From Candidatus Heimdallarchaeota archaeon (GTDB lineage: Archaea; Asgardarchaeota; Heimdallarchaeia; Heimdallarchaeales; Heimdallarchaeaceae), in assembly GCA_019057815.1 (NCBI GenBank), contig JAHLWR010000020.1:1-64000 (forward strand): 64,000 bases of DNA, written 5' to 3'. The translations under genes and the position numbers were made by a program. The notes under the pieces are model-generated. The model searched no databases. It had not been told where the DNA came from and worked only from the letters and a program-made list of their open reading frames with translations. Positions 161 to 18,028 of this stretch are shown in pieces (position 1 is the stretch's first letter; every line of letters starts with the position of its first letter).

Positions 161-2491
161 GGTCAACAGATTTTTTTATAAGGGATTCTTTTTGTCTTTC
201 ATTTCTTTTAATTTACTTTTTTAGCTAATTCTGGAAGATTTTTAACAAAAAACAACACAACAGATAATTTAGAGTAACTACAATCTTTAAAGGTTAAAAT
301 ATCAAAGAAGTATTTTGCTCTATTCTTTTAAAACGGAAAATAGGGAGTAAAGAAGGAGAAATAATTTTATTCTTTCTTACAGTTTTCTTGGTTTCTTCCT
401 CTTTCTAACGGTACTCCTTAATGAAACTATATAGGCGAGGATAATAACACCCACAATAAAAATTGTGGATAGAGGAGTTGAAGCTGTAGGAACATCAGTT
501 AGAGGATGACGATCAGTAGAGTTAGCTATTCCATCAATTAGATAATCACCTTCTAACCAGTCTGACCAGTAGTTACCTTTTCGCTTCTCATACCAAAGAT
601 TATCCGTACCTCCATCATAAGCTTGACTAGTACCTTCAGGGTTGTTGTTGATGAAAGCATTGTGGTGAATGAGGTTATCAGAGGATGCAGCATCCAGGTA
701 AACTCCATATTGCTCATTTTCTTCCAAGAGATTATAAGTGAGAATATTAGAGTCAGAATCCCTCAGAAAAACTCCGTAGTTGTTATTTTTGTAAGAGTTG
801 TTAGTAAGCGTGGTAGAAAGAGTATGGTCTAGATAAGTCCCCCAGACATTTTCAGCAAAGAGAGAGTTTTCGACTTTACAAGAGTCACTATAAGCTAAGA
901 ACAGCCCAGTGGTAACATCAGTGAAGTTTTGGTTGCTCACGGTTATATTATTGCAGTTAATAAAAAAGAGTTGACCATAGACTGAGGTATTAAACGAACG
1001 ATCATTAAGATCTGTAAAATAACCTACAGGACGACCATTAACCCAGTTACTGTCTTTGGTAAATTTTTGAGAAAGATACCCTGGACATGAATCATCCCAG
1101 ATAGCTATCCCTCCTTTGATCATGGTATTATTGGTTAGGGTTGTAGCCCCACTGTTATAAATAACAATACTTCTATTGTTATTATAAAACCTATTATTAA
1201 CGACGGGGATATCACCAGAATGGTCCAAAATAAGTCCTTGATCATTATCGTTACATGTGTTGTTAGTTACTGATGAACTACGTGAACGTAATAGATAAAT
1301 TCCCTTAGTGTTCCCATTACAACGATTATCTGTTAAAATTGAATCATCAGCGTCATCTAACCATATTCCAAAGTCGTTATTTGAGCAGATGTTGTTTCTG
1401 AGTGTAACATTACCAGAATAAAGAAGAGAGGGATCCCTTGAATTATATACAATGAGAATGGCATGTTCGTTAAAATTGCAAGTGTTATTGGATATAGTTA
1501 AAGATCTAGAATAATACACTGAGATGGCTTTTTTATTATTGTTGCAGGTATTATTTGTGATAGTTGAAAAATCAGATCTAGTAAGATAAATGCCCTCATC
1601 GTTGAAGTTGCAGGTGTTATTAGAGAAAGTTGAGGAATCAGAATCGTATGCATAAATACCTACCATCTTATTATTGTTACAAATATTGTTTGTAATTGTT
1701 ATCGAAACCGAATCACTAATCGAAATGCTCCTTAAGTTATTGTTGTTGCAAGTGTTGTTTGCAACAGTTGAACTACCAGAATACAGAAGCGAGATCCCAA
1801 TGTTATTGTTGTTGCAAGTGTTGTTTATTATAAAGGCATTACCAACAAGCGTTAGTCCGATACCAACACCATCATTGTTGACACAGGTGTTATTTCTAAC
1901 AGTAGCTGTTCCAGGAGCAACTTCTAAAATACTGATACCTTGTATTTTAGCATCAATATAGCAATTAGATATGCTGAAAAACTTAGTTGTCCCTACAATA
2001 AAGATACCACATTCTGCTAATGATGTAATATTGTATCCTTCAATGATGTAAGGATCTTCAGCTGTTCCTGAACCATTAAAAACTTCTAATTCGCTATCAG
2101 AGGTTATTAAAATAGGATCATGAGGAGTTAAAAGAAGTTTCATTAATGATGGTTCGGACCTACAAAAAGAAGGAGTGAATGTAGGTATAAAGATAGAAGT
2201 TCCTATAAGTACTATCATAACAATTTGCACGACTTTAGCTCTTACAATTTGTTGAAATATTAGCTTTTTCATTAAGTTCACTCAGCTACTTTACTGTTAA
2301 TATTTCTATTTAAACATTTATCTATGTTTTCATTTCTTTTGTTATACTTTTAATCTCTAAAATATTTATTTATTGATTCTTAACTTCATATTGTTCTGTA
2401 AGAAGTTCATTAGAGAAATAAACATGATATTTCACCCAAGATAGAAGTAATAATAGTATTCCCCATCATACTCGCAAAGCATCTGTTGACC
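161..2491. mobile_element. Putative non-autonomous IR-bounded cargo element A carrying a beta-helix gene
   Basis: GGTCAACAGAT at 161-171 and its reverse complement at 2481-2491. The left 36 bp are 33/36 identical to 11837-11872. No transposase inside. Confidence 0.6.
377..2281 (-). CDS. Secreted/membrane-anchored right-handed parallel beta-helix (NosD/CASH-like) protein
   Basis: N-terminal hydrophobic segment, GSGTAEDPYIIEG motif, many xxNNTCNNN repeats, GNYWSD motif, C-terminal TM helix with basic tail. Confidence 0.85.
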   Translation of the reverse strand: MNLMKKLIFQQIVRAKVVQIVMIVLIGTSIFIPTFTPSFCRSEPSLMKLLLTPHDPILITSDSELEVFNGSGTAEDPYIIEGYNITSLAECGIFIVGTTKFFSISNCYIDAKIQGISILEVAPGTATVRNNTCVNNDGVGIGLTLVGNAFIINNTCNNNNIGISLLYSGSSTVANNTCNNNNLRSISISDSVSITITNNICNNNKMVGIYAYDSDSSTFSNNTCNFNDEGIYLTRSDFSTITNNTCNNNKKAISVYYSRSLTISNNTCNFNEHAILIVYNSRDPSLLYSGNVTLRNNICSNNDFGIWLDDADDSILTDNRCNGNTKGIYLLRSRSSSVTNNTCNDNDQGLILDHSGDIPVVNNRFYNNNRSIVIYNSGATTLTNNTMIKGGIAIWDDSCPGYLSQKFTKDSNWVNGRPVGYFTDLNDRSFNTSVYGQLFFINCNNITVSNQNFTDVTTGLFLAYSDSCKVENSLFAENVWGTYLDHTLSTTLTNNSYKNNNYGVFLRDSDSNILTYNLLEENEQYGVYLDAASSDNLIHHNAFINNNPEGTSQAYDGGTDNLWYEKRKGNYWSDWLEGDYLIDGIANSTDRHPLTDVPTASTPLSTIFIVGVIILAYIVSLRSTVRKRKKPRKL

Positions 2492-5257
2492 TTAAGTAAA
2501 ATGCTGACCTATTATTCTTTTCTTAATATCCTGAGTAAGCGTGATAATATTTTTGTTTTCTTCAAGCATAAAGATTTCCCAATTGAAGAGTAATTGTTGT
2601 TCAATTCGATGATAGAGATTCTCAGCAAGTGCATACTCAGACTTATCTAGATGAGTTTTAGCTTTTTCTATTAGAAGTTCTACTATAACTACTTTATCTG
2701 TTACCCATTTACACAGATTTATTATATTATCTACAACTTCTTCTCTTATCTGTACATAATCGTTCTTTTGGTATTTAGGGATTTTAAGAACGGTGTACAA
2801 TAATAAATTAGCACGAACAAATAGTAAGTTCCACAGATGAGTTTTATAATGTTGCTCTTCTTTTATCTCTTTCAAAGTATGAATTATTATATCCAATGAA
2901 TCAAAGGCTACTTCATGTTTTTCAGTTTCAATAAGCTTTGGTAAAATTTCTAGTTGCAAGCATAAACCATAACGACCTTTTTTCATTTCCTTCTTAGAAA
3001 ATCTCATCAAATCCGAGTAATTATCTTCAATTTCAAGTAATAAGCTTAATAATTCACGAGCTTTATTCCAGTCTCTATATTCACACAAATCGAAAAACAA
3101 AGAAATAATATTCTCTTTCAAATGATCAGATGAATTTTCTTTTAGTGACAAAATATCTTCTAAGAGTTCAGATAGAAGTAAATATTTTTCAGATTGAAAT
3201 TGATTTGAAAGAAGCTTAAGGTCACTCAAAGCTTCATTTTTAGATCCTTTTCCAATTAATATAAGCTGTAACGCTTTGTAATAGTTGCTTTCCAGTATTT
3301 TCCCATTTTCCTTCAAGTTCTTACTTATTTCAATTAATTTATTACAGTGTTCTATTTTTTGATCACTTACCATAGAAGTTTTTGATAATAATTCACCTTT
3401 TAAATGGACCCACGCATACTGATAGTAAAAATCTCTCCAATACCTGCAGTCAGCTCTTTTAAGAAACAGTTCAAATAAATCTTTAAAGAAATTAGATAAA
3501 TCTTCAGTTTTAATTTTTAGATGGTGAGCCTTATTAAGTAAGGTGATAATGGGATTAAGGTCATTTTCGTTACGTAAGGATAAATCAAATATGGTTATGG
3601 GGTCACTTGCAAAAATTTTTTGGAAATTGTTATTTTTAACAAATGAATACATCCTACGTATTTCAAGTGCACATTCTAATAACTTCATTTTAATATCTCT
3701 AAACTTCCCTCCTTCAATATAGTACTTGAAAACATTAAGATGTGGTGGAGCTTTAGGGAAAATAATTGATGCTTTAGAAGCAGGGCAATTAATCGCCCTT
3801 TGTAGTTTCAATAGCACTTCTTCGATATTCTGAAAACTAACCTTCTTTTCATCATTTTCCTTATGTAAAACCCCAATTACTGAATAATAGGGTGTAACTG
3901 TAGAAGTCATCTCCTTCGTAGAATTAGCTTCCACTTGAAAATCTTCTTTCATTAGAAGACAAATTTCTTCATTTGCGATTTCCAAAGTTAAGAGAAAATA
4001 ACTTCTAATATCATTTTCTGGTAAATTTTGGATTTCAAACCATGTATCATCCCTAATTGAAGTTTCAGCTGTTTTTTCTATAATTCTCAGAAAGTGTGAA
4101 TAAGATGTAGATGCAAATCTATTGATTGGTACTGATAAGATATCGAAAATTTCCTCTGTTATTGTTCCATTTTTATACAAATCAACCGTGGAAAGATAGT
4201 AAGGATCAAAGAATTCATCTTGTTCTACAAAATAAAAAATAAGACTACTTATCTCAACTTTTCTCACATAAAGTTCTGTTTCAATATCTTTGAATTTTCT
4301 TTCGTGGGAGTATGTAATTGCCTTATCTAAGATTTCGATGGATTTATCAAAATCATTTATGCTCTCAAAAGCGTCAGCCAATTTTTTACATGTAATAAGA
4401 AACTTCTCTTGATCAGACCAACGAACGGATTTCAGCATTAAATCTGCAAAGTTGTGCAATATCTCTGGTTCAACTAACATCAACGATTGGGCAAATAATG
4501 TGTCTAAATTTTCTAAAACCCCATCAATAAGATGAACTGATGAACCTATTTTAGCTAAAACAGCTTTTATTTCATTTTTAATTTCTTCTATTCCTTCTTT
4601 TGGATGAGGAAGTGAAAGTGAACCTATCACAGTTAGTAAGTAAACTATGGAAATAAATATGGTTGGAAGATTCTCTGTATCCTTAATTGTTAATAACCAA
4701 TCATAAGTAGCGTCAAAACCCCTTGTATAATCATCAAGTTCCCAATACGATTTAGCTTTCAACTCCTTTATTATAGACGTGATTTCATCATCTATCACAT
4801 TATATTTTTCAACTTCTCTTATCTCCTTTAGCACTTTTTTATAATTTGAGTTTCTGTAAAATTCGTAAGCAACTTGAAGCTTAATACTAGCCATTATTTC
4901 ATAAAGTTTGAACTTCTTTGCAAGAGATGCAGCTTTTACGAGCAAAGGTAAAGGATCTTTATTCAGAGATGTGTATAATTGAGATTGAAAAATTAAAGCT
5001 TTCATCAAAATGAAATTGTCTTTAGATTGATTAGCTAATTGTAACAAAAAATCGCTTATCTCACGAGATTCATCAATTTGATTATTAATCAGAAGCTCTT
5101 GACCTTTCAATGCACTTTCAGTGACTAAGTCTTCCAAAGAAGTAGATATTGTGATTCCATATTTTTTTACTATTGATAATAAATCATCCCCTAACAGTTT
5201 TCTTTTTTTAGATTTCATTTTATTATTAATCTCTTGTGAATTGTTGTTAGAAGACAC
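2492..5257 (-). CDS. Large alpha-helical (TPR-like) hypothetical protein
   Basis: 921-aa ORF with helical TPR-like patterns. No catalytic motif recognised. Confidence 0.6.
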   Translation of the reverse strand: MSSNNNSQEINNKMKSKKRKLLGDDLLSIVKKYGITISTSLEDLVTESALKGQELLINNQIDESREISDFLLQLANQSKDNFILMKALIFQSQLYTSLNKDPLPLLVKAASLAKKFKLYEIMASIKLQVAYEFYRNSNYKKVLKEIREVEKYNVIDDEITSIIKELKAKSYWELDDYTRGFDATYDWLLTIKDTENLPTIFISIVYLLTVIGSLSLPHPKEGIEEIKNEIKAVLAKIGSSVHLIDGVLENLDTLFAQSLMLVEPEILHNFADLMLKSVRWSDQEKFLITCKKLADAFESINDFDKSIEILDKAITYSHERKFKDIETELYVRKVEISSLIFYFVEQDEFFDPYYLSTVDLYKNGTITEEIFDILSVPINRFASTSYSHFLRIIEKTAETSIRDDTWFEIQNLPENDIRSYFLLTLEIANEEICLLMKEDFQVEANSTKEMTSTVTPYYSVIGVLHKENDEKKVSFQNIEEVLLKLQRAINCPASKASIIFPKAPPHLNVFKYYIEGGKFRDIKMKLLECALEIRRMYSFVKNNNFQKIFASDPITIFDLSLRNENDLNPIITLLNKAHHLKIKTEDLSNFFKDLFELFLKRADCRYWRDFYYQYAWVHLKGELLSKTSMVSDQKIEHCNKLIEISKNLKENGKILESNYYKALQLILIGKGSKNEALSDLKLLSNQFQSEKYLLLSELLEDILSLKENSSDHLKENIISLFFDLCEYRDWNKARELLSLLLEIEDNYSDLMRFSKKEMKKGRYGLCLQLEILPKLIETEKHEVAFDSLDIIIHTLKEIKEEQHYKTHLWNLLFVRANLLLYTVLKIPKYQKNDYVQIREEVVDNIINLCKWVTDKVVIVELLIEKAKTHLDKSEYALAENLYHRIEQQLLFNWEIFMLEENKNIITLTQDIKKRIIGQHFT

Positions 5258-5444
5258 TTGGATTCAATCTACACTAGAATTATAATTAACACAAAATTTA
5301 CGAATTTATCAAAGTTTTGTTAAGACAACAATAAAGAAAGAAGAAATTAAAAGAGTATAAACTAACATTCTTACTGTTCATCACCAAAGAATAGATAAAT
5401 ACTTAAATATCTCTCTTGCTGATTTTAACCATAGGAATATTAAG

Positions 5445-7019
5445 ATGGTGGTTTATTTGGGATATCCTCAAGTATCTCTTTACGAATATCTTCTACAAAG
5501 TTCTGAAAATAGAAGAATGGCTATTGCAATTGAAGGCAGTGATGAGCAAGTTACATACCAGGATATAATAGATAGATCAAATAAACTAGCTGATTTCCTC
5601 CTTACATGCGATGTTAAAAAAAATGACACTATAGCCATTGCTCTTCCAAATTCGATAAATTATATTATTTCTGTTTTTTCTGCTTTTCAAATAGGTGCTA
5701 AAGTAACACCAATAAATATCAGGCTTTCTCAACGCGAAATAAACTTCCAGTTACTTGATTCAGAGGCTAAAGCTATCATTATTTCACCTGAAATGTGTGA
5801 TGTTTTTGGAGATTTAAAAAATAAATTCGATTTCAAAGCAAGAATAATAACCCCAAGCATTGTTTCAGATTCTTCTGAAAATGATTGCATTGATGATTAT
5901 GTACATTTAAAAAGCATTCAACAAGCCGACAGAAAATTCACTGAAAATATGAGTAATGCTGATTCTATAGCCTTTCTTCTTTACACAGGCGGAACTACAG
6001 GAACACCTAAAGCTGTAATGTTAACACATTCCAACATTTTAATCAATTCAATGCAATTCAACAGCCGTTTGGATGAATCACCTAGAACGGATAAAGAGAG
6101 TGCTCTAGCTGTTCTACCTTTAAGCCATAGTTTTGGTTTAATTTGTGCCTTATTCGCACCTCTCTTCAGGGGAGATAAAATTATCACCCAAGCAACTTTT
6201 TCACCATCCAAAGTTTTAGAGATTATTGAGAAAAAGAAAATTACCGCTTTTCATGGTGTCCCCACAATGTACTTTGCTCTATTGAGTGAAGATTTAGAAA
6301 AATATGACATTAGTAGTTTAAAATTGTGCATCTCCGGAGGAGCAGGATTACCAAAAGAAGTTTATGAACAATTTCTTAAGAGAACTGGTGTTTCGATAAA
6401 AGAAGGTTATGGATTAACAGAATGTAGCCCTGTTACACATGTAAATCCAATTTATGACCCCAAGATTGGATCCATTGGTAAACTTCTAACAGATACTCAA
6501 GCTAAAATAATCGATCCAGAAACAAACGAGACTTTGCCACTTGGAGAGACAGGAGAGTTGGTCATTAAAGGACCGCAAGTAATGAAAGGTTATTGGAAAA
6601 AAGGTGTTGAAACTATCAACGTTTTCACTAAAGATGGGTGGCTAAAAACAGGTGATTTAGCAAAAGTTGATGAAAAAGAATATTTTTACATTATTGATAG
6701 ATTAAAGGATGTAATCAATTCTGGCGGATACAAAATTTATCCCAAGGAAGTAGAAGAGATCTTACATCAACATCCAGCTGTAGCGATAGCTGCAGTTATT
6801 CCTATACCTGATGATTTCTATGGAGAAGTAGTAAAAGCTTATATTATTCTTAAAAAAGGCCAAAAGACTTCAAAAGAAGAAATTACTGAATATTGTAGAA
6901 AATTTTTGGCAAGTTTTAAAATTCCCAAGGAAATAGAATTTACAAAAAAATTACCTTTAAGCGCAGCTGGTAAAGTGTTAAAAAGAGAATTGAAGAAAAA
7001 TAGTACTACTGAATATTAG
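5445..7019 (+). CDS. Long-chain fatty acid-CoA ligase (AMP-binding family)
   Basis: YTGGTTGTPK, EGYGLTE, KTGD, DRLKD and GKVLK motifs. Confidence 0.92.
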   Translation: MVVYLGYPQVSLYEYLLQSSENRRMAIAIEGSDEQVTYQDIIDRSNKLADFLLTCDVKKNDTIAIALPNSINYIISVFSAFQIGAKVTPINIRLSQREINFQLLDSEAKAIIISPEMCDVFGDLKNKFDFKARIITPSIVSDSSENDCIDDYVHLKSIQQADRKFTENMSNADSIAFLLYTGGTTGTPKAVMLTHSNILINSMQFNSRLDESPRTDKESALAVLPLSHSFGLICALFAPLFRGDKIITQATFSPSKVLEIIEKKKITAFHGVPTMYFALLSEDLEKYDISSLKLCISGGAGLPKEVYEQFLKRTGVSIKEGYGLTECSPVTHVNPIYDPKIGSIGKLLTDTQAKIIDPETNETLPLGETGELVIKGPQVMKGYWKKGVETINVFTKDGWLKTGDLAKVDEKEYFYIIDRLKDVINSGGYKIYPKEVEEILHQHPAVAIAAVIPIPDDFYGEVVKAYIILKKGQKTSKEEITEYCRKFLASFKIPKEIEFTKKLPLSAAGKVLKRELKKNSTTEY

Positions 7020-8034
7020 AAATGATTATTTCGAAAGCTTCATCAACTGAGAGAGGTTCGAAAACCTCATTACTAAATACTTTTCTACTCAAATCATACA
7101 GAGCCTTATTATATGGAGTTTTTACATTGTTTTTTTGTGCGAGTTGTAATATATATCCATTCAAAGTATCTAATTCGGTGATATTTTTCTTCTTCATTAT
7201 AAGATCTTGAGCCATGCTGTTTATCATTGCATGTTTAACATTTTTCTTGAAAATGAGAGTGCGTAAAAAGGAAGGAATTTTCAAGCTTAGAGAGATTGTT
7301 TTCCAATTTGGAAGACTTCCTAACGCATGTTCTTTATAGCCAGCTTTTTTGATAATCTTAATACCTTCAGAAATAACTTTTGTTGATAAGAGTGAAAGTT
7401 TGGAAAACGAGGATAGTTTTTGGAAATTCAAACCCACCAAGGTAAATAGAGAATTTGACAGATTAAGCGCAATTTTAGTATGAACAGCATCTTGTAATCG
7501 GTCAGTAATTTCACATTTAAAACCTAGATTAAAAATACCATTTATCTCTTCTATTGAGTATTGTGGTTTATCATCTTCTGTTCCTAAGTATAGTGGACCC
7601 TTCGTTTTGTAATATACAACATTTTCATTATCTTGCCAAACATTAAAACAAATGACACCATAAATTATCTTATTGAAGTACTTAGTTAGAATGTTTTGAT
7701 TTTCCACCCCGTTTTGTAAAGCAACAATTATAACTTCACTCTTGAATTTTGAATGGATCTGTTGCGCAGCTTTTTCTAAATCGTAATTTTTAACTGCTAA
7801 TATGATAACATTAACATTATCAATATCATCTAAGGAGTTAATTACGGAAGCTTTTACGTTATTTTCTTTGTTTGAATCAACCCCAGAAAGAATAAGCCCT
7901 TCATCTTGTAATTTGATATACTTATCTCCTCTAGCTAATAAAATAATATCTTTGTAACGAGGAGCAATCCAGCCATAAACAGATGAACCAATAGCACCAG
8001 CACCATATACAAGAATTCTTAGTTTTTCAGGCAT
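7006..8034 (-). CDS. panE: Ketopantoate reductase (PanE/ApbA) family
   Basis: GAGAIG, LAVK, LQNGV, SMAQD and TELDTLNG motifs. Confidence 0.85.
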   Translation of the reverse strand: MPEKLRILVYGAGAIGSSVYGWIAPRYKDIILLARGDKYIKLQDEGLILSGVDSNKENNVKASVINSLDDIDNVNVIILAVKNYDLEKAAQQIHSKFKSEVIIVALQNGVENQNILTKYFNKIIYGVICFNVWQDNENVVYYKTKGPLYLGTEDDKPQYSIEEINGIFNLGFKCEITDRLQDAVHTKIALNLSNSLFTLVGLNFQKLSSFSKLSLLSTKVISEGIKIIKKAGYKEHALGSLPNWKTISLSLKIPSFLRTLIFKKNVKHAMINSMAQDLIMKKKNITELDTLNGYILQLAQKNNVKTPYNKALYDLSRKVFSNEVFEPLSVDEAFEIIISNIQ

Positions 8035-8160
8035 AATTACTAATGATTAATGGTGCTTTTGAATTTTTCCAAAACTAAACAATGAGAATGCAAATGCTCG
8101 TAAAACTGCCAATAAGTAAATATACTTAATATTTTCAAATAGTAGGTAGGTGCTTAAACT

Positions 8161-9069
8161 ATGGAACAAAAAGGCTTTGAGACGGAGCTTGCTATGAGTT
8201 TAATAGAAAATCAACTTTACGATGAAGCATTATCTTATTTGAACCGCTTAATTGATAAATATCCAGAAAATCAGCTTCTCTTTCTTAAAGGAAAGATATT
8301 CTATGTTACTGGGTTATTTCAAGAATCTATTGAGGTTTTAACAACGATTATAGCTGATCAAACAGATTATTGGCAAGCTTATGAACTACTTGGGGAGATT
8401 TATCGTACTCTTAATCAAAGCGATTTGGCTGAAACATTCTATTCGAAAGCTACAGAGATAAATCCACAAGCGATGTCTTCATGGTTAGGGAGAGGAAAAA
8501 TGGCATATCGACAATGTGAATTTCAAATAGCTACCCTATGTTTTGAAACATACTTAAGATCTGATGTGAAGAATATAGAAATAAGGCTATTATTAGCCAG
8601 GAGTTATAGAGAGATGGAAAACTATTTGTCTGCAATTGATGCTTATAATGAAACCATAGATTTTGACCCCACCAATCAAGATATTTACGAAGAACTTGGA
8701 GATTTATATATCAAGCTCGATCATCCAGAAATTGCAAGAGAAAAGTATTCTCAAGCTTTACAAGTAGAAGAAAAAACAAGACCAGTCAACAAAGAGATCT
8801 ACTACAAGTTAATAGAATTAGTATTTAAAGAGGAAAAATACCAAAAAGCATTCAATCTTTGCAACGAACTCTTAACAATTGTTAAATCTGATCCAAAAGC
8901 GCTCTTTCTTTCTGGAAAAGCATTAATCAAACTTAATGATATTAAAGAGGGACGAAAAAGAATTTCTGAAGCATATAATTTAGAAAAAAATGATGAATAT
9001 TGGAAATATCTCGAAAAATTTGATGATAATCGATTAAGAGAGAAAATAAAATCAAGAAATTACGAATGA
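8161..9069 (+). CDS. Tetratricopeptide repeat protein
   Basis: Repeated 34-aa TPR patterns (AYELLGEIY, EELGDLY). Confidence 0.85.
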   Translation: MEQKGFETELAMSLIENQLYDEALSYLNRLIDKYPENQLLFLKGKIFYVTGLFQESIEVLTTIIADQTDYWQAYELLGEIYRTLNQSDLAETFYSKATEINPQAMSSWLGRGKMAYRQCEFQIATLCFETYLRSDVKNIEIRLLLARSYREMENYLSAIDAYNETIDFDPTNQDIYEELGDLYIKLDHPEIAREKYSQALQVEEKTRPVNKEIYYKLIELVFKEEKYQKAFNLCNELLTIVKSDPKALFLSGKALIKLNDIKEGRKRISEAYNLEKNDEYWKYLEKFDDNRLREKIKSRNYE

Positions 9070-9082
9070 TAGTGAGAAAAAA

Positions 9083-9847
9083 TTGGAATCGCAGAAATCA
9101 GAAGATGAAATATTCTCACAGATTGCATATAAACATCTGTCAAAATTCTGTTTTATGGTTTGGGATTATTTTACAATTCCAAAGTTATTCGATTTTTATG
9201 GATCTGAGAGTTCATGCCTTTGCCACTATGGTAATCATTACCTTCTTCATGGAATCCCAAATGAAGAGATTCTTGAAAATATTAGAAATAAGGGAGAGTT
9301 TGTAGTTGCATATGATAGTATTTGGAGAAATCTGATAATTCAAAACTTTATAAATCTTAGATTAGTTGACGATTCAGCTGGAAATAGTGTTTACAACACT
9401 TTTTTATGTATGGAAATAAGTAAAGACAACTTAAGTTTAAAAAAGGATTATAAAAGTAGAGAAATAACTGATGAAGACTTTGATTTACTATCACTAAAAC
9501 AACAAATTCACATGCAAAAAGGATTTGGTGGCACTTGTATAACTAAGGAAAACATACTTATTGGATGTGCATTTGCTCCACATGTAGTAAATAAGAACGA
9601 TTTTTCATTTGCCATCATACGAGATGTTTGGGTTGATAGAAACCACAGAAACAAGGGGTATGGTTACGATTTAACTGAAAATTTATGTAAATATATTTTC
9701 AATCAAGATATAGAGAGAATATTCCTGTGGGTTGAAAAAAGCAACATTCCAGCAGTTAAGATATATAATAAAATGGGATTCATCACTAAAGAACAAGTCT
9801 TAGGAAACTTATGTCAACTAAAAAAAAGAGAAGTTTTAATAGTTTAA
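9083..9847 (+). CDS. GNAT family N-acetyltransferase
   Basis: VWVDRNHRNKGYG acetyl-CoA motif and SNIPAVKIYNKMGF. Confidence 0.85.
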   Translation: MESQKSEDEIFSQIAYKHLSKFCFMVWDYFTIPKLFDFYGSESSCLCHYGNHYLLHGIPNEEILENIRNKGEFVVAYDSIWRNLIIQNFINLRLVDDSAGNSVYNTFLCMEISKDNLSLKKDYKSREITDEDFDLLSLKQQIHMQKGFGGTCITKENILIGCAFAPHVVNKNDFSFAIIRDVWVDRNHRNKGYGYDLTENLCKYIFNQDIERIFLWVEKSNIPAVKIYNKMGFITKEQVLGNLCQLKKREVLIV

Positions 9848-9876
9848 TTATTGTTATTTTATTTCAGGTCATCGAT

Positions 9877-9948
9877 ATGTGGAAGATAAACGATACTACA
9901 ATTAAGTTAAATCAAGGAGATATAACTGAATATGAGGGAGATGCAATT
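9877..9948 (+). pseudogene. Macrodomain (ADP-ribose binding/hydrolase) gene, fragment 1
   Basis: MWKINDTTIKLNQGDITEYEGDAI, interrupted by the IS at 9949. Confidence 0.85.
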
Positions 9949-9953
9949 TTGAA

Positions 9954-11225
9954 CTACCACTGCCTAAAGGCGGTGGATTCTTGTTTCTTCGACGACTGCT
10001 CTCTTATAGAAAGTCTTACACCATCTCCACAAGCGTAACTTCCCGTCGTCCCAACGGTAGGGATGATAATGATATTATTAGTTTGAAGGATTTTGAGTCC
10101 TTCTTTTAGAAGGTTTTTTGAAGCATTAACATCTCTTTCATGAACTGTTGAGCATTTTGCACATATCCATTCGCGCTCTGATAGTTGGAGTTCTAAATTC
10201 TTCCAACCACAGTGAGAACATAATTTACTGGAAGGGAAAAACCGCTCCACTAATACAAGATGTCGCCCGTTTCGTTCTATTTTATGTCGCAAAGTTGATA
10301 CGAATTGTGCCCAAGAAAAGTCTAAAGTAACGGATTTACTGATTCCTTTATTGAATTGTTGCATCCCTTTAATGTTTAAACGTTCTAAAATGATTGCATC
10401 ATATTCTTGAGCAAAACAAGTAGTTAATTTATGCAACCAATCATTTTTTCGGTTCGTGATTGTGTCATATTTTCGGGCTAATCGAAGTTGAGATTTCTTA
10501 CGATTCGATGAACCCTTCTTTTTTCGGGAAAGTCTGCGATGTAATCGTTTAAGACGGTTTTCTTCGCTTCGATAAAAACGGGGGTTGTTCAATTTTATTC
10601 TTTCGGAAATCAAAAAATGGGGTGCGGACATATCGAAAGCTTCTATTCTGGATTGTTCAATAATCTTTTTCTGAGAAATATCTATGTCACGTTCTACAAG
10701 TAACGAGATAAAGTATCTACCGCTCTTGGTTTTCGAGACAGTAACTTGTTTAATCTGTTCGGTGAAGACTCGTTCATTTCGATACTTAACCCATATGTCT
10801 ATTTTAGGTAATTTTATCCGTTTTGTTTCAAAATCAATTTTGATGTTGTTATTGATGTTATATGTGGTATAACTCTGTTTATTTTTTTGGGATTTGAAAT
10901 TTGGGTATCCTATCTTTCGCGTGTTTTTCAACCCATCAAAGAATTTTTGAAAAGCGGTGTTCAGATTTCGAGTCACAGATTGAAGAGCTTTGCTATCTAC
11001 CTCTTTTAAGAAAGGAAACAACGCTTTGTATTCTTTTTCCGTTTTGTATTTGTGCGTGTATAGTTTTTCCTTATCGTGTTTGAGCTTTTGATACACTCCT
11101 TTTCGTTCATTAAGTATCTGATTCCATAGAAAACGACAGCAACCAAATGTTTTTGCTAATTGTGCTTGTTGTTCTTGGTTAGGATATATGCGGAACTTAT
11201 AAGCGTAATTAATCCTCACGTTCAA
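9954..11225 (-). CDS. tnpB: RNA-guided endonuclease TnpB
   Basis: AYKFRIYP HTH, FGCCRFLWN, RuvC D/E/D (AFDMS, ILERL, ERDVNA) and CxxC-CxxC zinc finger. Confidence 0.95.
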   Translation of the reverse strand: MNVRINYAYKFRIYPNQEQQAQLAKTFGCCRFLWNQILNERKGVYQKLKHDKEKLYTHKYKTEKEYKALFPFLKEVDSKALQSVTRNLNTAFQKFFDGLKNTRKIGYPNFKSQKNKQSYTTYNINNNIKIDFETKRIKLPKIDIWVKYRNERVFTEQIKQVTVSKTKSGRYFISLLVERDIDISQKKIIEQSRIEAFDMSAPHFLISERIKLNNPRFYRSEENRLKRLHRRLSRKKKGSSNRKKSQLRLARKYDTITNRKNDWLHKLTTCFAQEYDAIILERLNIKGMQQFNKGISKSVTLDFSWAQFVSTLRHKIERNGRHLVLVERFFPSSKLCSHCGWKNLELQLSEREWICAKCSTVHERDVNASKNLLKEGLKILQTNNIIIIPTVGTTGSYACGDGVRLSIREQSSKKQESTAFRQW

Positions 11226-11631
11226 GTTTCCCTCGTTGAGCTTCTATATATTGATTAAGTCTATCAATAGAAACATTTCCTGTAGTAGCAATAAAATAGT
11301 TAGGACTCCAGAAATGGTCTCCCCATAGTTTATCGCGCAAAAACTTCGCATATTTTTTCCTTAAAAACCGAGAAGTATGCCCTTTAATTGAATTAATGTA
11401 TTTTGGTATATCTAGATTTGGCTTAGCTGAGATAAACAAATGAGCATGTTCAATTCCACATTCAATTTCCAATACCTCAACATCAAAAGTTTGACTTAAT
11501 TCTTTCACTTTATCTTTGAAATCTTCAATAATTCCAATATCCTCTAAGAAGGCCTTTTGTCGATATTTTACGACGAATATCAAATGGTAGTTAAGCGAAT
11601 ATACACGATGTGCTTCTTTCCGATATTTCAT
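11209..11631 (-). CDS. tnpA: IS200-like HUH Y1 transposase
   Basis: YHLIFVVKYR, HAH (HUH), FWSPNYF and catalytic YIEAQ. Confidence 0.95.
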   Translation of the reverse strand: MKYRKEAHRVYSLNYHLIFVVKYRQKAFLEDIGIIEDFKDKVKELSQTFDVEVLEIECGIEHAHLFISAKPNLDIPKYINSIKGHTSRFLRKKYAKFLRDKLWGDHFWSPNYFIATTGNVSIDRLNQYIEAQRGKLERED

Positions 11632-11738
11632 ATTTAGTTCCCTTATATAAATGGCTACTTATATTATTATATATCTATCCCATATAAGTTTATGTATTCC
11701 CATCCATGCCCTCAAGGACATGGCTTTAGTACTTATTT

Positions 11739-11836
11739 GTAAATGCAGCAAATACAGAATTATTACTTGGTGCAGGTGTTGCAGGTGCAATAAGAAGGAA
11801 AGGAGGGACCTTCTTTGCAAGAAGAATGTTATCAGA
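11739..11836 (+). pseudogene. Macrodomain gene, fragment 2 (frameshifted)
   Basis: VNAANTELLLGAGVAGAIRRKGG, then after one extra G, PSLQEECYQ. Cut at the GGTCAACAGAT repeat. Confidence 0.85.
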
Positions 11837-12064
11837 GGTCAACAGATAGTTTTATAAGGGAATCTTTTTGTCGAAAGAAAACTTCGACATAGTTCTGTTA
11901 ATAGGAGAAAAGGATAAAAAATGGAGTAAGAAAGGCTGAAATGGGAATATTTTGATAAAAGATTTTTGTCAATGGAAAGATTAGACTAAATTGTAGAATC
12001 GTTATTGGAAGAATTAGTTGCACAAAATATTTATTAGATAAAGAGTTTAGTTAAATGTGATTCT

Positions 12065-13741
12065 ATGAAAAAGAAAACAACAATAATTCTATTAATACTG
12101 GCATTGTCAATCTACGCTTCGAATATCAATGTACAAATAACTGCTGAAGAGAATGATTATAGACCTAATTCGTTAGAGTTGACACCTCATGATCCAATTG
12201 AAATAACAAGTGATAGTGATTTTGAGGTTTTTCCAGGAACAGGAACAGAAATAGATCCTTATGTTATTGAAGGATATAATATTACAACAACTGATGACAA
12301 TGGTATTTATATTACTTATACAACGAAATATTTTACTGTTCGTAACTGCTATGTTGAAGCAAGCAATAATGGTATTTATATCGATAATGTAGCTGAAGGA
12401 ACAGCAACTGTCATTAACAACACGTGCAACAACAATGGCTATGATGGCATCAAGATTGACTCTTCGGGGAGTTCGACTGTCATTAACAACACATGCAACA
12501 ATAACACCAGAGGTATCCGTCTTTACTATTCTGGGAGTTCGACTGTTACAAACAACACATGCAGCAATAACAACTATGGCATCTTGCTTTACTATTCTGG
12601 GAGTTCGACTGTTACAAACAACACATGCAACAATAACACCAGAGGCATCTACCTTGAGGATTCTGGCAGTTCGACGGTGGTAAATAACACTTTTACTAAT
12701 TGTGGCTTGGATATCTTTGAATATACCATTGATGCTTACCTCTCATATACTATCGAGAATAATTGGGTGAATGGTAAAAAACTGGGTTTTTACACTAACC
12801 TTGACTCTACGATAATTGAAGAACCAATTTATGGTCAATTAATATTAGTCAATTGTACTAATGTTACAGTACGTGACCAAATATTAAATAACGCTACAAT
12901 TGGATTATCTCTTGGATTCTGTACATCTTCAGCTATTATTAACAACACGTGCAGCAACAACATCATAGGTATCTATCTTCACTCTTCTGATAGTTTGACT
13001 GTCATTAACAACACTTGCAGCAACAATAACTATGGCATCTATCTTGACTTTTCTGATAGTTTGACTGTCATTAACAACACTTGCAACAACAATAACTCTA
13101 GTGGCATCTGGCTTTGGGATTCTAGGAGTTCGACGGTTGAAAAAAACACGTGCAACAATAACAACTATGGCATCAATCTTCACTCTTCTGGTAGTTCGCT
13201 TGTTAATAACAACACTTGTAGCAACAATAGCAACTATGGTATCAATCTTTACTCTTCTAGTGGTTCGACGGTTGAAAAAAACACATGCAACAACAATAAC
13301 AACTATGGCATCTATCTTGACTCTTCCGATTTTTGTGTCGTTACTTACAATCTTCTGCAAGAAAATGAAAACTATGGAGTATACTTAGAATCTAGATCTA
13401 ATAATAATCTTATTCACCATAATACCTTTGTAGACAATAATCTAGGAGGAACTTCTCAAGCGTATAATTCTGGTACTAACAACTATTGGTATGATACTTC
13501 AAAACAAGAGGGCAACTACTGGTCAGACTGGTCGGGAACTAGTTATTATTCTATTGATGGTGATGCTGATTCGGTTGATCTCTATCCTCTTGCTGAACCT
13601 GTTGAATCTACTTCATCTGAACACACTTCAGTTGAATCTACTACAGATGAAAATCCATTAAACTTCACATTTGCTCTCCTAATATTAGTAGTTTCCTTAA
13701 TACTCACAAGGATAATCTCAAAGAATGCAAAGAAAGAATAG
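12065..13741 (+). CDS. Secreted beta-helix (NosD/CASH-like) protein, paralog of 377-2281
   Basis: Signal peptide, LTPHDPIEITSDS...GTGTEIDPYVIEG, 22-23-aa NNTCxNN repeats, GNYWSD, C-terminal TM helix. Confidence 0.88.
   Translation: MKKKTTIILLILALSIYASNINVQITAEENDYRPNSLELTPHDPIEITSDSDFEVFPGTGTEIDPYVIEGYNITTTDDNGIYITYTTKYFTVRNCYVEASNNGIYIDNVAEGTATVINNTCNNNGYDGIKIDSSGSSTVINNTCNNNTRGIRLYYSGSSTVTNNTCSNNNYGILLYYSGSSTVTNNTCNNNTRGIYLEDSGSSTVVNNTFTNCGLDIFEYTIDAYLSYTIENNWVNGKKLGFYTNLDSTIIEEPIYGQLILVNCTNVTVRDQILNNATIGLSLGFCTSSAIINNTCSNNIIGIYLHSSDSLTVINNTCSNNNYGIYLDFSDSLTVINNTCNNNNSSGIWLWDSRSSTVEKNTCNNNNYGINLHSSGSSLVNNNTCSNNSNYGINLYSSSGSTVEKNTCNNNNNYGIYLDSSDFCVVTYNLLQENENYGVYLESRSNNNLIHHNTFVDNNLGGTSQAYNSGTNNYWYDTSKQEGNYWSDWSGTSYYSIDGDADSVDLYPLAEPVESTSSEHTSVESTTDENPLNFTFALLILVVSLILTRIISKNAKKE
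12410..13330 (+). repeat. Intragenic ~66-69-bp tandem repeats in two blocks (~12410-12690 and ~12935-13330)
   Basis: Near-identical DNA units such as TCGACTGTTACAAACAACACATGCA(A/G)CAATAAC. Confidence 0.8.
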
Positions 13742-13925
13742 ACTAGTGGTCATAAACTGAATAGAAGCGGAGTAATAGGAGTAAAACCTTCAACACTTCC
13801 TCTTTTTTCACCTTTATAATCAAATAATGGATATATAAGTAATCTAAACCTAAAGTCTGCTACCTATCTTTTATTCTTAACCCAATAATTAAAAGAACTA
13901 TAATTGGTGGAAGCTATGCAGATGG

Positions 13926-15428
13926 TTATTGGGATAGAAGAATTAGATTACTAAGAAAAAGAAGTTTTGGTTGATTTCTCACAGGATTAAGAGTTAATTT
14001 TTTCTTATTTCTAAAAATACATTGCACATAAACCTTCTTATTTTCTTTTATAGAGCCATTTTGAGGATTTAGTGTACTTCTCGTAATATTCTGTTTGATA
14101 AAATCATTTTGTTGCTCTACTATTGTACTTGAAATATTAGATATTGAAATAAATACATCTGCAGAATAGTGATCTGAACCTGTTTTAGCGTGATGTGTAT
14201 CCCCTGTTGTTGAATTAATTAAACTCTCTGTAAAAAATTGATTTACAATTATGTAATCTATCCTTGAATTGTACCTTGTATCTGTATGGCCATAAGTGTG
14301 ACCTATCTCTGTTGGGTTTAGAGTTCTAAAAACATCAGTAAAAGTATGTACAGTAGAAGAGTATTGTCCATAGACTGGGTCATCAGGGCAGAGGAGCATA
14401 GTTAAAGAACCATAACCCAAATCTCCTAATGTAGCCAAATCTCCTGTATCAAAAGGTGAGAATGAATTTATATCACCTAGATAGATAATCGGTACATCTC
14501 CTAAATCATCCATGTAATTAATTATCCCTTGTTGTTCTAACACTCTTCGCCAAGTGTTATTAGAAGATTGCGTATCTCCCATTGCCTTGAGATGAGTGCA
14601 TATGAAATGTGTAACCGTACCACTGATGTTAACAACAGCATCAATAAACGAATGAGTGACAATATATGGGCTACCATCGTCTAAAGTCACTGAAGGTATA
14701 TCTATGAAATTTATTATTGGATAACGGCTAAGTATTGCTTCACCAATGTAAAGGACAGTGTGGACTTGTGAAGTATACCCTCTAAATGGTGCTTCATCAT
14801 AGAAATGCATGTTGAAATCGTTAACATACCTCCTTAAACTTATACTATTACTATCGTCCAAATTGCCTGTCTCTATACATACCATGATATCAGGATTTTC
14901 TTCATAGACAACTTTTTTCCAATCGGGATTTTTTCCTCCTCCATCGATATTATATGCAATTAATTTGAAAATATCTGAAGGTGGATCATTGATGAAGCTA
15001 TCAACTATTACCACAAATTCAGTTTCATTAGCACAACCACTTGTACTAACAGCTTTTGCTAATAATGTATGTGGTCCATCGGAGAATTGTGCAGTATTCC
15101 AAACAGTTGAGTTCGTCTCTGAAAATAGAGTATTATCGATGTATATCGAATAGGCAAACTCCTCAGCTTCACAACTAGCATTTTTATCAGAGTAATATTT
15201 TTCTATTTCCCCCGAAGGATAAATAACAGTACTCTCTGTTGTAAAGCTAATGTTAACAACACCAGAAGAAAGTTTAGTAATTGATGTTTCATCAAATTGT
15301 ATGATAATAGAGACAACTGTAGAGTGCCTTAAACTAAAGTAAGTAATAAGACCTATAGACGAGGTAATAATAATAATAATACCAGCAATTATTGAAATTA
15401 TTTTAGTGTTTAACTTCATTTTTCTCAC
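13926..15428 (-). CDS. Membrane-anchored endonuclease/exonuclease/phosphatase (EEP) family protein with Ig-like domain
   Basis: AYNI, IET, THL, GDIN, RIDYI and SDH motifs; N-terminal TM helix. Confidence 0.85.
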   Translation of the reverse strand: MRKMKLNTKIISIIAGIIIIITSSIGLITYFSLRHSTVVSIIIQFDETSITKLSSGVVNISFTTESTVIYPSGEIEKYYSDKNASCEAEEFAYSIYIDNTLFSETNSTVWNTAQFSDGPHTLLAKAVSTSGCANETEFVVIVDSFINDPPSDIFKLIAYNIDGGGKNPDWKKVVYEENPDIMVCIETGNLDDSNSISLRRYVNDFNMHFYDEAPFRGYTSQVHTVLYIGEAILSRYPIINFIDIPSVTLDDGSPYIVTHSFIDAVVNISGTVTHFICTHLKAMGDTQSSNNTWRRVLEQQGIINYMDDLGDVPIIYLGDINSFSPFDTGDLATLGDLGYGSLTMLLCPDDPVYGQYSSTVHTFTDVFRTLNPTEIGHTYGHTDTRYNSRIDYIIVNQFFTESLINSTTGDTHHAKTGSDHYSADVFISISNISSTIVEQQNDFIKQNITRSTLNPQNGSIKENKKVYVQCIFRNKKKLTLNPVRNQPKLLFLSNLILLSQ

Positions 15429-15674
15429 AAGAAGGGTTTTTCTTTAAAGCGAAAAGTATTGAAATTCACAAATATTTCTAGAAGTTACTTTAGGCTTTAA
15501 AACTATCTGTTGACCTTAAATCTATGAGTTCTTATATTATTAAAATTATTTCTAAAATTAAATTTCTGACATTCTGATGTATAGAATTTTCACCGAAATA
15601 TTAATTAAGTGTGCTTACATATTTATATATTGTACGAAGATGATAACTATTTTCGTATTTATAGGGTGACAAAT

Positions 15675-16205
15675 ATGTTGAAAAAACGCAAATTGTTCTC
15701 TTTATGCCTAGGAATCATCATTTTCTCATCAGTTCTATGCATTCATCAATCTCAAGCTAGACGGAGTATTTTTGATGAAACCTGGTATGGAGAAGCTCTA
15801 GGAGATTTAGGAAATATTCATGTATCTTTACAGATTCAAGTGTACGATGATTAGCTAGTTAAAGTAACAGCTACATATTCTAAAGATCCAAGTGTGTGGT
15901 ATATACTCTTCGATTACATTGAAGTCTATGTACAAGGAGTATATTGGCAGAATCAGCAAGAGGAAGTTCCTACCTCAGGGGGAACAGGTTCAGCAGAGCA
16001 AACAGGAGACTTAACGCAATTTCTCTGGGAAATAGGAGCTTCATATTTAACTATTGTAGTTGGATTAGCGTTCAAGGCATACGGGAATGTAATGTTCGCA
16101 ACTCAAGGGTTGATTGTATTTCATTTTGGCATAGGACTCTGTGCTTTTGACGAAGTAGCTTTCCTTAACCCCTCAGCTTATTCACGCATGCGAAGAGGAT
16201 CTTGA
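15675..16205 (+). pseudogene. Secreted hypothetical protein with an in-frame TAG at 15852-15854
   Basis: The two track ORFs are in the same frame, separated by a single amber codon. Signal peptide present. Confidence 0.55.
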
Positions 16206-16612
16206 TTTTAAGAAATAGAATTTCCAAACTTTTTCTTATTTTTTTTTTATTATTATGATTAATCCATTTATTTCGCTAGAAAATACCATTAACTATTTTC
16301 TTCCCCATCTCTGCAAGGATTTGCTTTATTTTCTGAAAACACATTTATGTAAAATGTTGGTTAAGTGAACCTTTCAGGAATAGAATAATTTCATAAATGA
16401 TTGCAATAAAAATCATAGAGGTTAGTTGAAAGTAAAAGAAAAGTGAATATCTTCCTTATAACCACTATATTTAGGGGAGTAGTATGGAGAATTATGACAT
16501 TGAAGAAGTCCTAGATTTTTTCGAAACTAAAATTTTATATTCCGTAGAAAGAGTCGGACATATTGAAAGACGAACTAATGCCCTTCGAATGTTAAGCAAT
16601 TTAAAGGATCCT

Positions 16613-16906
16613 CTATATTCCTCTTTTGAAAAATCGGAAGTTAAGATAGTATAAACCTTTTTCATTAATATCGGAAAATGTTTTTAGAATTATTAAAAAA
16701 CCGTTGCTATGGATATAACCCGATTTAATAAGATGTATAATACCATTAACTTTTACAAAATCAGGATAATCAGAAAACCATATTTCGATATACCATTCAT
16801 CTTTTTTCTGTAAATAAAAATCACCGACATTAGCTTTATATTTTTCATTTAAGAAAATTGATATTGCTTCTAAAATTGTAGATTTTCCGCTATCATTTTT
16901 CCACAC
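16613..16906 (-). pseudogene. N-terminal relic of an OLD/AAA_15-type ABC ATPase
   Basis: (G)KNDSGKSTILEAI Walker A; ORF truncated at about 100 aa. Confidence 0.6.
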
Positions 16907-17077
16907 AAACTATATATTAACCATACCAAATTGTAATAATCAGATGAAAGAAAAAGAATCATCAACAATAATATTTTTGACTAAAATGTATCTTGCTCTT
17001 CTTCTAGGTTTGATTTCCCTCTTTCTTTTATCTAATAACTTCATAGTCGAACAAACTTTCGACAAAACTACCACATA

Positions 17078-17287
17078 TTTAAACTAAAGAATTCACCCTT
17101 TCCTTGAATAGGGACTGGTATTGGGGGTATTTCCAAGCAAATCGGTGCAAAGATTTTCACTGAAGTTTTACTTTCATATCTTAAAACTGACCCTCATATT
17201 TTTGAAGAAGTAGCTATTATCCTTTTTGACAAGCATGACTATGGTATATTCTTGGATGTTTTTAAAAAGGAATTAAAAGTTATTTAG
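17078..17287 (+). pseudogene. Macrodomain gene, fragment 3 (C-terminus, internal TGA)
   Basis: PFP*IGTGIGGISKQIGAKIF...FEEVAIILFD matches the FPxIGTGxxG loop and final strand. Confidence 0.8.
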
Positions 17288-17290
17288 ATA

Positions 17291-18028
17291 TCAGTAATCC
17301 TCAAGCTCGACATCTTCAGTAAATTCAATTTCGTCTTCGTCTTTATGCAATCTAGCCCTATCTTCCTTTATATCATCTACATGATCTTTAATCAATTCGT
17401 ATAAATCATCATAAGTATCTGCAATATATGGAGTATCTAACTCTGTTTCTAATGAATAACCCCATGTTACTCCAATACAAGGAATATTTAGAAAATCTGC
17501 AGCTTGAACATCATTAGGAAGATCTCCTACCAAAACACCTGATAATATACTATCTGAATCACAATTTTCATTTATTACAGTCATCTTATCTTCACCAGCC
17601 AACACCTTTTCAAAGGGAACTTTGTCACCAAACAATTTTTCGAGTATTTCCTCTGAAGTCTCTTCATTTTCAAATAATGGGTTCTGAGTTACTAGAATCA
17701 TTTGAAGATCTTCTATTTTTTGTACTTTTTCTAGAAACTCTATAATCCCTTCGTGTAATTTAATTTCTGAAGTAAAGAGTTCCTGTTGTAAAGTTCGCAT
17801 CTTTTTTCTTTTTGACAGAAGTTTGATAGGATTAACAGGATATTTGAAGAACAATTTCATGCTTACTCCTTTTTTTGAAGCGTCTTTATACATCTGAATA
17901 ACTTCATCTCGAGACAGTTCTTTATTGACAGACTGCTTAAATACTGCTTGAACTATTCCTACAGTATCTGCAATAGTACCTCCAAAATCAAAAAAAACGG
18001 GAATTCTCTTATCAGTCATGAATGTCAC
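17291..18028 (-). CDS. HAD superfamily hydrolase (phosphoglycolate phosphatase-like)
   Basis: FDFGGT motif I variant, VGDLPNDV motif, GVTWGY. Confidence 0.8.
   Translation of the reverse strand: MTFMTDKRIPVFFDFGGTIADTVGIVQAVFKQSVNKELSRDEVIQMYKDASKKGVSMKLFFKYPVNPIKLLSKRKKMRTLQQELFTSEIKLHEGIIEFLEKVQKIEDLQMILVTQNPLFENEETSEEILEKLFGDKVPFEKVLAGEDKMTVINENCDSDSILSGVLVGDLPNDVQAADFLNIPCIGVTWGYSLETELDTPYIADTYDDLYELIKDHVDDIKEDRARLHKDEDEIEFTEDVELEDY

Follow-up and report, generated by a model that had tools for sequence, protein, structure and literature searches.

The tips of a small insertion element with Cas1 as its sole gene at the joints of a rearranged stretch in a Heimdallarchaeota genome

In this study, a window of 64,000 nucleotides (the whole stretch analysed) from contig JAHLWR010000020.1 of a Candidatus Heimdallarchaeota archaeon was investigated for the 11-bp motif GGTCAACAGAT and for the genes lying between its inverted copies. 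We observed that the terminal inverted repeats (TIRs) of a small family resembling insertion sequences (IS), in which Cas1 is the sole gene, have GGTCAACAGAT as their outermost 11 bp. The copies in the window are probably decayed, cas1-less remains of this Cas1 insertion element, situated at the joints of a much-rearranged stretch. An exact scan located them at 161-171 (+), 2481-2491 (-), 11837-11847 (+) and 15505-15515 (-), the same four copies that an earlier, sequence-only reading had picked out and paired into two units, 161-2491 and 11837-15515, taken as mobile carriers of NosD-like genes. Its idea of a mobile element stands in so far as the motif is an element terminus, but the units as drawn there are not shown to be mobile. 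The source genome (G000; 3.74 Mb in 48 contigs, 33% GC, archaeal according to its rRNA genes) is cited below by contig numbers with the letter C, the window lying on contig C8; it was compared with a genome of the same genus (G001), 93-96% identical to it in orthologous DNA, and with two genomes of another genus, g3 (G012 and G010). Metagenome-assembled genomes break at repeats, so full element copies are under-represented in them.

The sequence-only reading had suggested looking for a copy that encloses a recombinase, and such a copy was found at C36:5632-7163, where the same inverted ends surround cas1. This reference element is 1,532 bp long, with two facing GGTCAACAGAT tips and no other gene than cas1 (element positions 258-1240; Pfam PF01867 at 5.9e-46), which is broken by a frameshift into frames of 81 and 264 amino acids. 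Its TIRs are 53 bp long and match at 48 of the 53 positions; the terminal repeat begins GGTCAACAGATAGTTTTATAAGG and runs into a GTCGAA..TTCGAC hairpin (GTCGAA-N7-TTCGAC), and five hairpins of the form GTCG-N11-CGAC are present in the element, three downstream of cas1 and one in each terminal repeat. No target duplication surrounds this copy. Two intact homologues of the protein, each of 326 amino acids, were obtained from contigs that are about element-sized, namely P0001 (91% identical, contig of 1,525 nt) and P0002 (82% identical, contig of 1,474 nt). The best NCBIfam model for P0001 is that of type I-B Cas1b (228 bits), it reaches 188 bits with the generic cas1 equivalog, for which the cut-off is 72, and its closest solved structures are CRISPR Cas1 proteins (4wj0, 5e-35), the casposase 6opm scoring only 3.9e-5; the catalytic Glu, His and Asp positions are kept in the alignment. 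Judged by these profile and solved-structure matches, the Cas1 of the element is of the CRISPR type (I-B-like) and not of the casposase clade, and it is presumably the enzyme that moves the family. No published family of Cas1-only insertion sequences was found in our literature search. Around the C36 copy, it was also noticed that the element is directly followed by a second copy, 94.7% identical, of the 3' half of a P-type ATPase gene (G000:C36, locus L001, 2077-3635 and 7166-8724), the original gene lying 5 kb upstream, and that the other flank holds a duplicated fragment of a zinc-finger gene.

Throughout the 3.7 Mb of the genome, 19 exact copies of GGTCAACAGAT were counted against about 1.3 expected from base composition, and the reversed control pattern gave none. 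When these copies are aligned, the majority extend as GGTCAACAGATAGTTTTATAAGGGAATCTTTTTGTCGAAAGAAAACTTCGAC..., at least 13 of the 19 continue into 33-216 bp of element homology, and 19 tips begin with GG at the identical position. A protein-binding or promoter site, or pairs made up of chance matches, is therefore an explanation to which we give hardly any credence: it would suit the three copies of the 19 that match over 11-13 bp only, a number not far from the chance expectation of about 1.3 (P ~0.14), but in most copies the motif opens the 33-216-bp repeat, the window alone holds four exact copies where about 0.02 are predicted, and the sites show no consistent position upstream of genes, so that for the family as a whole this explanation is refuted. 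Two further origins were considered and rejected. The motif is not part of a CRISPR array or leader, the arrays of this genome on C18, C20 and C46 having unrelated repeats, nor is it the end of the neighbouring IS200/IS605 element, the borders of which lie at 9948 and 11744 with the motif beginning 92 bp beyond. The likeness to IS1 or IS6 elements that had been suggested from the sequence finds no support, as the enzyme of the family is Cas1 and no IS1- or IS6-type DDE transposase linked to the motif was detected anywhere in the genome.

The family is present in this genome mostly as debris. By BLAST and nhmmer, about 30 fragments were recognized, with one full copy, about 24 fragments that keep the tip and about 8 internal ones. 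Of 24 relatives belonging to the same family, 12, spread over two genera, have the terminal repeat, and it was absent from all 16 genomes examined from the three other families of the order. In these relatives it occurs nearly always as solo ends retaining 20-141 bp, and close cas1 copies there are fragments only. No clean full-length copy with flanks was detected among representative genomes of other species, the closest Cas1 being 31% identical, and metagenomes at JGI yielded only two broken element copies. Besides the ordinary ends, a composite 3' terminus, which we call type-2, was recognized, consisting of 97-100 bp of the 5'-type end, a degenerate inner repeat (tip TTTCAGCC or TTTCAACC) and then the 3' untranslated region (UTR). 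It was found at C7:16876, C46:71117, G012:C15:360079 and G001:C34, and at G001:C34:611-1196 it is contiguous with cas1. A fixed trimming length of the tip-only relics, as a staggered-cut footprint would leave, was rejected, the retained lengths being 8, 11, 13, 18-21, 25, 30, 33 bp and more; a general rule that tips abut duplicated DNA was likewise rejected, as 3 of 22 outside flanks are duplicated compared with 13% of random stretches. On C24, a tip of a diverged subfamily (15846-15927) meets a canonical 3' fragment (15927-16138) exactly at element position 1317, and the canonical 3' fragments on C24, C43 and C44 all begin near element position 1335-1343, suggesting that they share one truncated form. 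The type-2 composite end at C46:71117-71303 lies 2 kb from a CRISPR array (C46:73166-73710, repeat GTTACCACCTCCTCTTTTGACGGAGCTAGAATGTAAC).

Within the window, the terminal repeat running into the hairpin is present at 11837 and 161, and not at 2481 or 15505. The site at 11837 is the most complete. It starts with an outer 97-bp terminal repeat (11837-11933, +) belonging to a type-2 3' terminus, with the element body to the right in antisense, and its positions 1-66 are 97% identical to the end of the C36 element (nhmmer, 89 bp at 4e-20). An inner degenerate repeat with the tip GGCTGAAATGGG and a piece of 3' UTR follow at 11934-12003 (+), aligning by BLAST to element positions 1455-1523 at 77% and cut at about element position 1455, and the composite end measures 177 bp in total. 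At 161-196 (+), a TIR stub of 36 bp matches element positions 1-36 at 33 of 36 bases (BLAST E 1.5e-6; nhmmer 1.6e-3 genome-wide), and the statement that the two left ends, 161-196 and 11837-11872, are 33/36 identical proved correct. It was also rightly noted that each left end cuts a gene. Between 160 and 161, the stub meets the 3' fragment of a flavin amine-oxidoreductase-like gene (1-160, -), which is 95.6% identical to C27:158380-158539, the homology stopping at 160 (the C27 copy stands at the end of its contig; Pfam Amino_oxidase 1.6e-14). Between 11836 and 11837, the middle fragment of a Macro-domain gene (11745-11836, +; Pfam Macro 2e-4) stops exactly at the element tip.

The two right ends of the proposed units are much weaker than they look. 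The motif at 2481-2491 (-) stands at the joint between the block of the first NosD gene, NosD A (278-2482, -; gene 377-2281 with flanks), and the native 3' flank of a gene of 921 amino acids. This block is 84-89% identical to C24:59921-62169, C7:55196-56492 and C38:178818-179988, all three without the motif; the homology with the C24 paralogue reaches ...GCAT, leaving only CTGTTGACC as new, and G001 carries GTTCAACC at the matching place, after the stop codon of the 921-amino-acid gene. At 15505-15515 (-), the motif terminates the block of an EEP-like gene (13986-15507, -; gene 13926-15428), which is 91.4% identical to C28:7432-8950 and 90.1% to G001:C110. The 18-bp inverted repeat between 11837-11854 and 15498-15515 is perfect as had been stated, but the C28 paralogue reads TAAAACCATC followed directly by aaataa, so that 10 of its 18 bases pre-exist in the paralogue and only TGTTGACC is new. 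These two sites add only 8-9 bp to the adjoining paralogous DNA, and no more than 8-11 bp at each are attributable to the element. We take both for what is left of ends that were joined at microhomology, and not for functional ends, because 64 kb would hardly contain two 11-mers in such places by chance. The remark that both right ends are followed by TTAA holds on reading the sequence, and so does the remark that no target duplication is visible in the flanks. As had also been said, the window copies carry no recombinase of their own: no cas1 was detected in contig C8 by BLASTN with the element or by TBLASTN with the Cas1 frames of C36, and the window copies are accordingly either remains or non-autonomous derivatives.

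The DNA between these sites is made of blocks with separate relatives. The block of the second NosD gene, NosD B (12004-13989, +; gene 12065-13741), retains only 70 bp of the conserved upstream region of the NosD family, its upstream homology with more than 15 paralogues beginning at about 11994-12004. The enclosed NosD genes are paralogous and in opposite orientation (377-2281 on the minus and 12065-13741 on the plus strand), as reported, and the EEP gene described for the second unit is present, though its assignment is weak (Pfam 23.6 bits for a cut-off of 24.5). Downstream of the EEP-like block, a patchwork of small open reading frames and an ATPase fragment occupies 15516-16967, with no relatives in G000 or G001; within it, 16613-16906 (-) encodes a 97-amino-acid N-terminal fragment of an AAA_15/AAA_23-type ATPase. 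This patchwork leads to a diverged 5'-type element end at 16968-17096 (-), with the hairpin GTCGAACAAACTTTCGAC at 17046-17063. The identity of this end to C33:75003-75134 amounts to 79% and that to C24:15846-15927 to 77%, and its likeness to the canonical end was put by eye at about 65%. Every inner joint that could be defined lies at a microhomology of 2-10 bp: AT is shared between the NosD A block and the tip at 2481-2482, T-AGAAGAA between the element 3' UTR and the NosD upstream region at 12000-12013, GGA between the NosD and EEP blocks at 13986-13989, and TAAAAC.ATC between the EEP block and the tip at 15498-15507.

Comparison with the sister genomes disclosed which of these segments are lineage-specific. 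The ancestral order, seen in G012 and G010, comprises the 921-amino-acid gene, an AMP-binding gene, a TPR gene, a GNAT acetyltransferase gene (9083-9847 in the window, and contiguous with the macro gene in G012) and the macro-domain gene. In G001, the macro gene is intact (L051:7982-8527, 182 amino acids, Macro 2.4e-31) and corresponds to the window up to 9947, then 11745-11836, then 174 bp missing in G000, then 17097-17287, the last being the 3' remainder of the gene in the window (+; 95.9% to G001:C34:8340 onwards). Two later insertions in G000 therefore interrupt this gene, a clean one of the IS200/IS605 element at 9948-11744 and a segment of 5,260 bp at 11837-17096 replacing the 174 bp. 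This segment is absent from G001, in which homology resumes at 17097, and it shows a 174-bp target loss without target duplication. The lineage-specific segment in the macro gene runs from 11837 to 17096 and does not end at 15515. In G001, the closest relative of NosD B (83% in amino acids) has kept the whole upstream region; it lies in inverted orientation between the GNAT gene and the macro gene, flanked by a direct duplication of 274-285 bp and by a tip-only GGTCAACAGAG. No history leading from one arrangement to the other was found, and a simple inversion, or an excision via the 274-bp repeats, turning the G001 arrangement into that of G000 does not fit. The duplication itself (L051 of G001:C34, 5546-5830 and 7783-8067) consists of the GNAT 3' end and the macro 5' end, and is unusually long for its position beside a tip-only motif.

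Other lineage-specific insertions were observed, and the family has been mobile since the split of the two species. Between window positions 5296 and 5308, G001 carries a cas1-bearing type-2 element with ends trimmed by 6 and 51 nt and an 11-bp target loss, an insertion that is absent in G000, G012 and G010. Between 18016 and 18025, G001 carries an insert of 3.78 kb with an 8-bp target loss, bounded by a 30-bp stub and, at the opposite border, a type-2 terminus (3 and 17 nt having been trimmed off), with a mosaic of multicopy sequences in place of cas1; the 8 lost bp include the probable start codon of a HAD hydrolase gene. Outside the window, on C44, an extra segment of 3.79 kb in G000 starts within an element, near its position 1335. 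Target duplications were seen neither at 5296/5308 nor at 18016/18025, nor at the macro-gene segment or on C44.

With respect to the cargo, no second copy of 161-2491 or of 11837-15515 was detected in G000 or in 25 relatives, only separate pieces matching elsewhere. The same cargo occurs without the ends at C24:59921-62169 and C28:7432-8950, a finding that the sequence-only reading itself had named as speaking against its proposal. Taken together, the single copies, these paralogues without ends and the real segment end at 17096 do not bear out the two units as mobile entities. The motif was absent within 420 bp upstream in 21 of the 22 NosD paralogues of G000 with a recognizable upstream region, the sole carrier being that of the window. 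G000 has at least 75 loci of NosD-like genes, 113 kb in all, and 8 of 35 element fragments lie within 2 kb of one (P 0.017), four of the eight being the window's own sites. A general link between element and NosD genes was rejected, as outside the window 4 of 31 fragments lie within 2 kb against 2.9 expected; since these are no nearer to NosD genes than chance would place them, the element does not explain the expansion of the NosD family, to which it had been thought to contribute. In a three-way comparison of the EEP block, the window copy shows 100 private differences against 27 and 49 for C28 and G001:C110, which makes it the outgroup to that orthologous pair and thus either older than the split of G000 and G001 or imported. 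The NosD paralogues (window about 11994-12064 and at least 15 other loci of G000, for example C48:219886, C38:174405 and C24:64061) share an upstream region of about 130-190 bp (...aagataggaagatat.agaacggatgggtttacc...ttgcacaaaatatatat), which may be a common promoter or leader. Several of them are paired with a divergently transcribed gene for a small membrane protein.

If the window copies are decayed remains, as we consider probable, the site at 11837 would represent the 3' terminus of an element inserted into the macro gene after the split from G001. The segment opened there would extend as far as 17096, to the inverted and diverged end of the 5' type, with some 5 kb of host-type DNA (NosD B, the EEP-like gene, the ATPase fragment and unknown DNA) where cas1 had been. 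The site at 161 would be a 36-bp stub fused to a duplicated gene fragment, and those at 2481 and 15505 would be 8-11 bp of tip left at joints between paralogous blocks. Insertion, deletion, gene conversion and duplication at short stretches of microhomology would have built the mosaic. Its inner joints would have arisen by microhomology-mediated joining, including deletion, gene conversion from NosD paralogues and template switching, and not by transposition of cargo. It is important to note that this order of events, like the role of Cas1 as the mover, is what we infer from the arrangement, and several observations weigh against it. A frameshift breaks the sole full copy in G000, and no insertion was found that is clean and carries a target duplication. 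The ends of the segment 11837-17096, one 3' and one of the 5' type, face one another as they do in a single element; the EEP copy in it predates the split of G000 and G001, whereas the segment came to lie in the macro gene only after that split, so that import of a ready-made block fits better than assembly on the spot; and a second cas1-less, end-bounded mosaic is inserted in G001.

These last observations favour cargo-bearing, non-autonomous elements, in which cognate inverted ends enclose host genes in the place of cas1 and an autonomous copy supplies in trans the Cas1 that moves them as units; 11837-17096, or 11837-15515 as an insert within an older relic, would be candidates, as might 161-2491. 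To these observations can be added that the G000-specific segment disrupts a gene which G001 has intact, that the comparable 3.78-kb insert of G001 has a clean empty site in the window, and that an element fragment adjoins a NosD-family block also at C1:101879 (C1:101777-101878, element positions 36-137). We nevertheless regard such elements as doubtful, as no unit is present twice, target duplications are lacking while 8, 11 and 174 bp were lost and ends were trimmed, the right partner at 17096 resembles the canonical end only at about 65%, and the right stubs at 2491 and 15515 retain 8-11 bp; moreover, in G001 the nearest relative of NosD B is found at a distance of 2 kb, differently arranged and with the upstream region complete, and cargo paralogues lack the ends. 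A patchwork formed without any transposase is possible, if on balance unlikely: pieces of linear DNA, excised or broken element copies among them, would have been captured at breaks or through serial template switching, the element ends recurring merely as abundant repeats. The microhomology of 2-10 bp at every joint examined, the insertions with trimmed ends, small target losses and no duplication, and the inserted DNA being a mosaic of multicopy sequences would all follow from it. Set against it are the exactness of most tips, the 19 that begin with GG at the same base, and the excess of terminal over internal fragments (about 24 against 8), which points to an activity acting at the termini; it also overlaps with the reading of decayed remains and is hard to separate from it. 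It would be an improbable outcome that the ends of this Cas1-only transposon delimit cas1-less derivatives, such as 11837-17096 and the 3.78-kb insert of G001, which took up host genes by template switching and were inserted as blocks by a Cas1 tolerating trimmed ends and leaving no target duplication. If true, it would constitute a Cas1-driven route of gene shuffling in Asgard archaea with a chemistry nearer to spacer capture than to classical transposition.

Cas1 is the spacer integrase of CRISPR systems and the integrase of the large, polymerase-bearing casposons. An element of 1.5 kb with a CRISPR-type Cas1 alone would represent a return of Cas1 to transposon life. Casposons encode Cas1 and PolB within inverted repeats, generate target duplications and are 6-20 kb long (PMC9939771); they have been divided into families 1-4 (Krupovic et al. 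2014, PMC4046053), and solo terminal repeats and tandem relics are among the features described by Krupovic et al. 2016 (PMC4779613). Our family resembles casposons in encoding Cas1, in its terminal inverted repeats, and in the solo ends and piled-up relics at insertion sites. It differs from them in lacking PolB and in size (1.5 kb, with cas1 only in the 1,532-bp element, against 6-20 kb), in a Cas1 classed as CRISPR I-B type instead of the casposase clade, in showing losses of 8, 11 and 174 bp at sister empty sites instead of a target duplication of 14-15 bp, and in having no tRNA or EF-2 target. Passenger-carrying non-autonomous derivatives, such as the mobile insertion cassettes of IS231 and the Pack-MULEs of plants, occur in multiple copies, with cognate ends that are intact and with target duplications. 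The window shares with them host genes or gene fragments enclosed by transposon ends in the place of a transposase gene, and joints at microhomology or filler DNA, but it shows none of those three characteristics. To the Cas1-only element of this genome, the window copies are identical in kind in the terminal 11-97 bp, the GTCGAA-N7-TTCGAC hairpin and the 3' UTR pieces, and they differ in the lack of cas1, in one end of type-2 with a duplicated terminus, and in the partner at 17096 from a diverged subfamily.

The window adds to this family its genomic debris, that is, many solo ends with an exact tip and a variant with a duplicated terminus. Lineage-specific insertions break genes, as at the macro-domain gene and the start codon of the HAD hydrolase, and the trimmed ends and small target losses in every case that could be checked against the sister genome bear directly on how the element moves. 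For annotation, the NosD and EEP genes of the window are not to be read as a mobile cassette, and the large expansion of NosD genes is left unexplained by the Cas1 element.

Among the remaining features of the window, the IS200/IS605 element at 9948-11744 (-) encodes tnpA (11209-11631) and tnpB (9954-11225), with the Pfam domains Y1_Tnp and OrfB_IS605/TNB. It is a true copy that also splits the macro gene, in its 5' part, and its borders, set from a 96.4% identical copy at C4:62367-64164 and the empty site in G001, lack the motif; G001 holds a 95% copy at a different locus. The 921-amino-acid open reading frame (2492-5257, -) has no Pfam or NCBIfam match and is syntenic beside the AMP-binding gene in two genera. 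Again, a repeat of about 620 bp was noticed in several copies, 82-87% identical, in both species of the genus (L051 12054-12677; C33:3682-4305 and C12:145304 in G000; C277, C29, C26 and C297 in G001).

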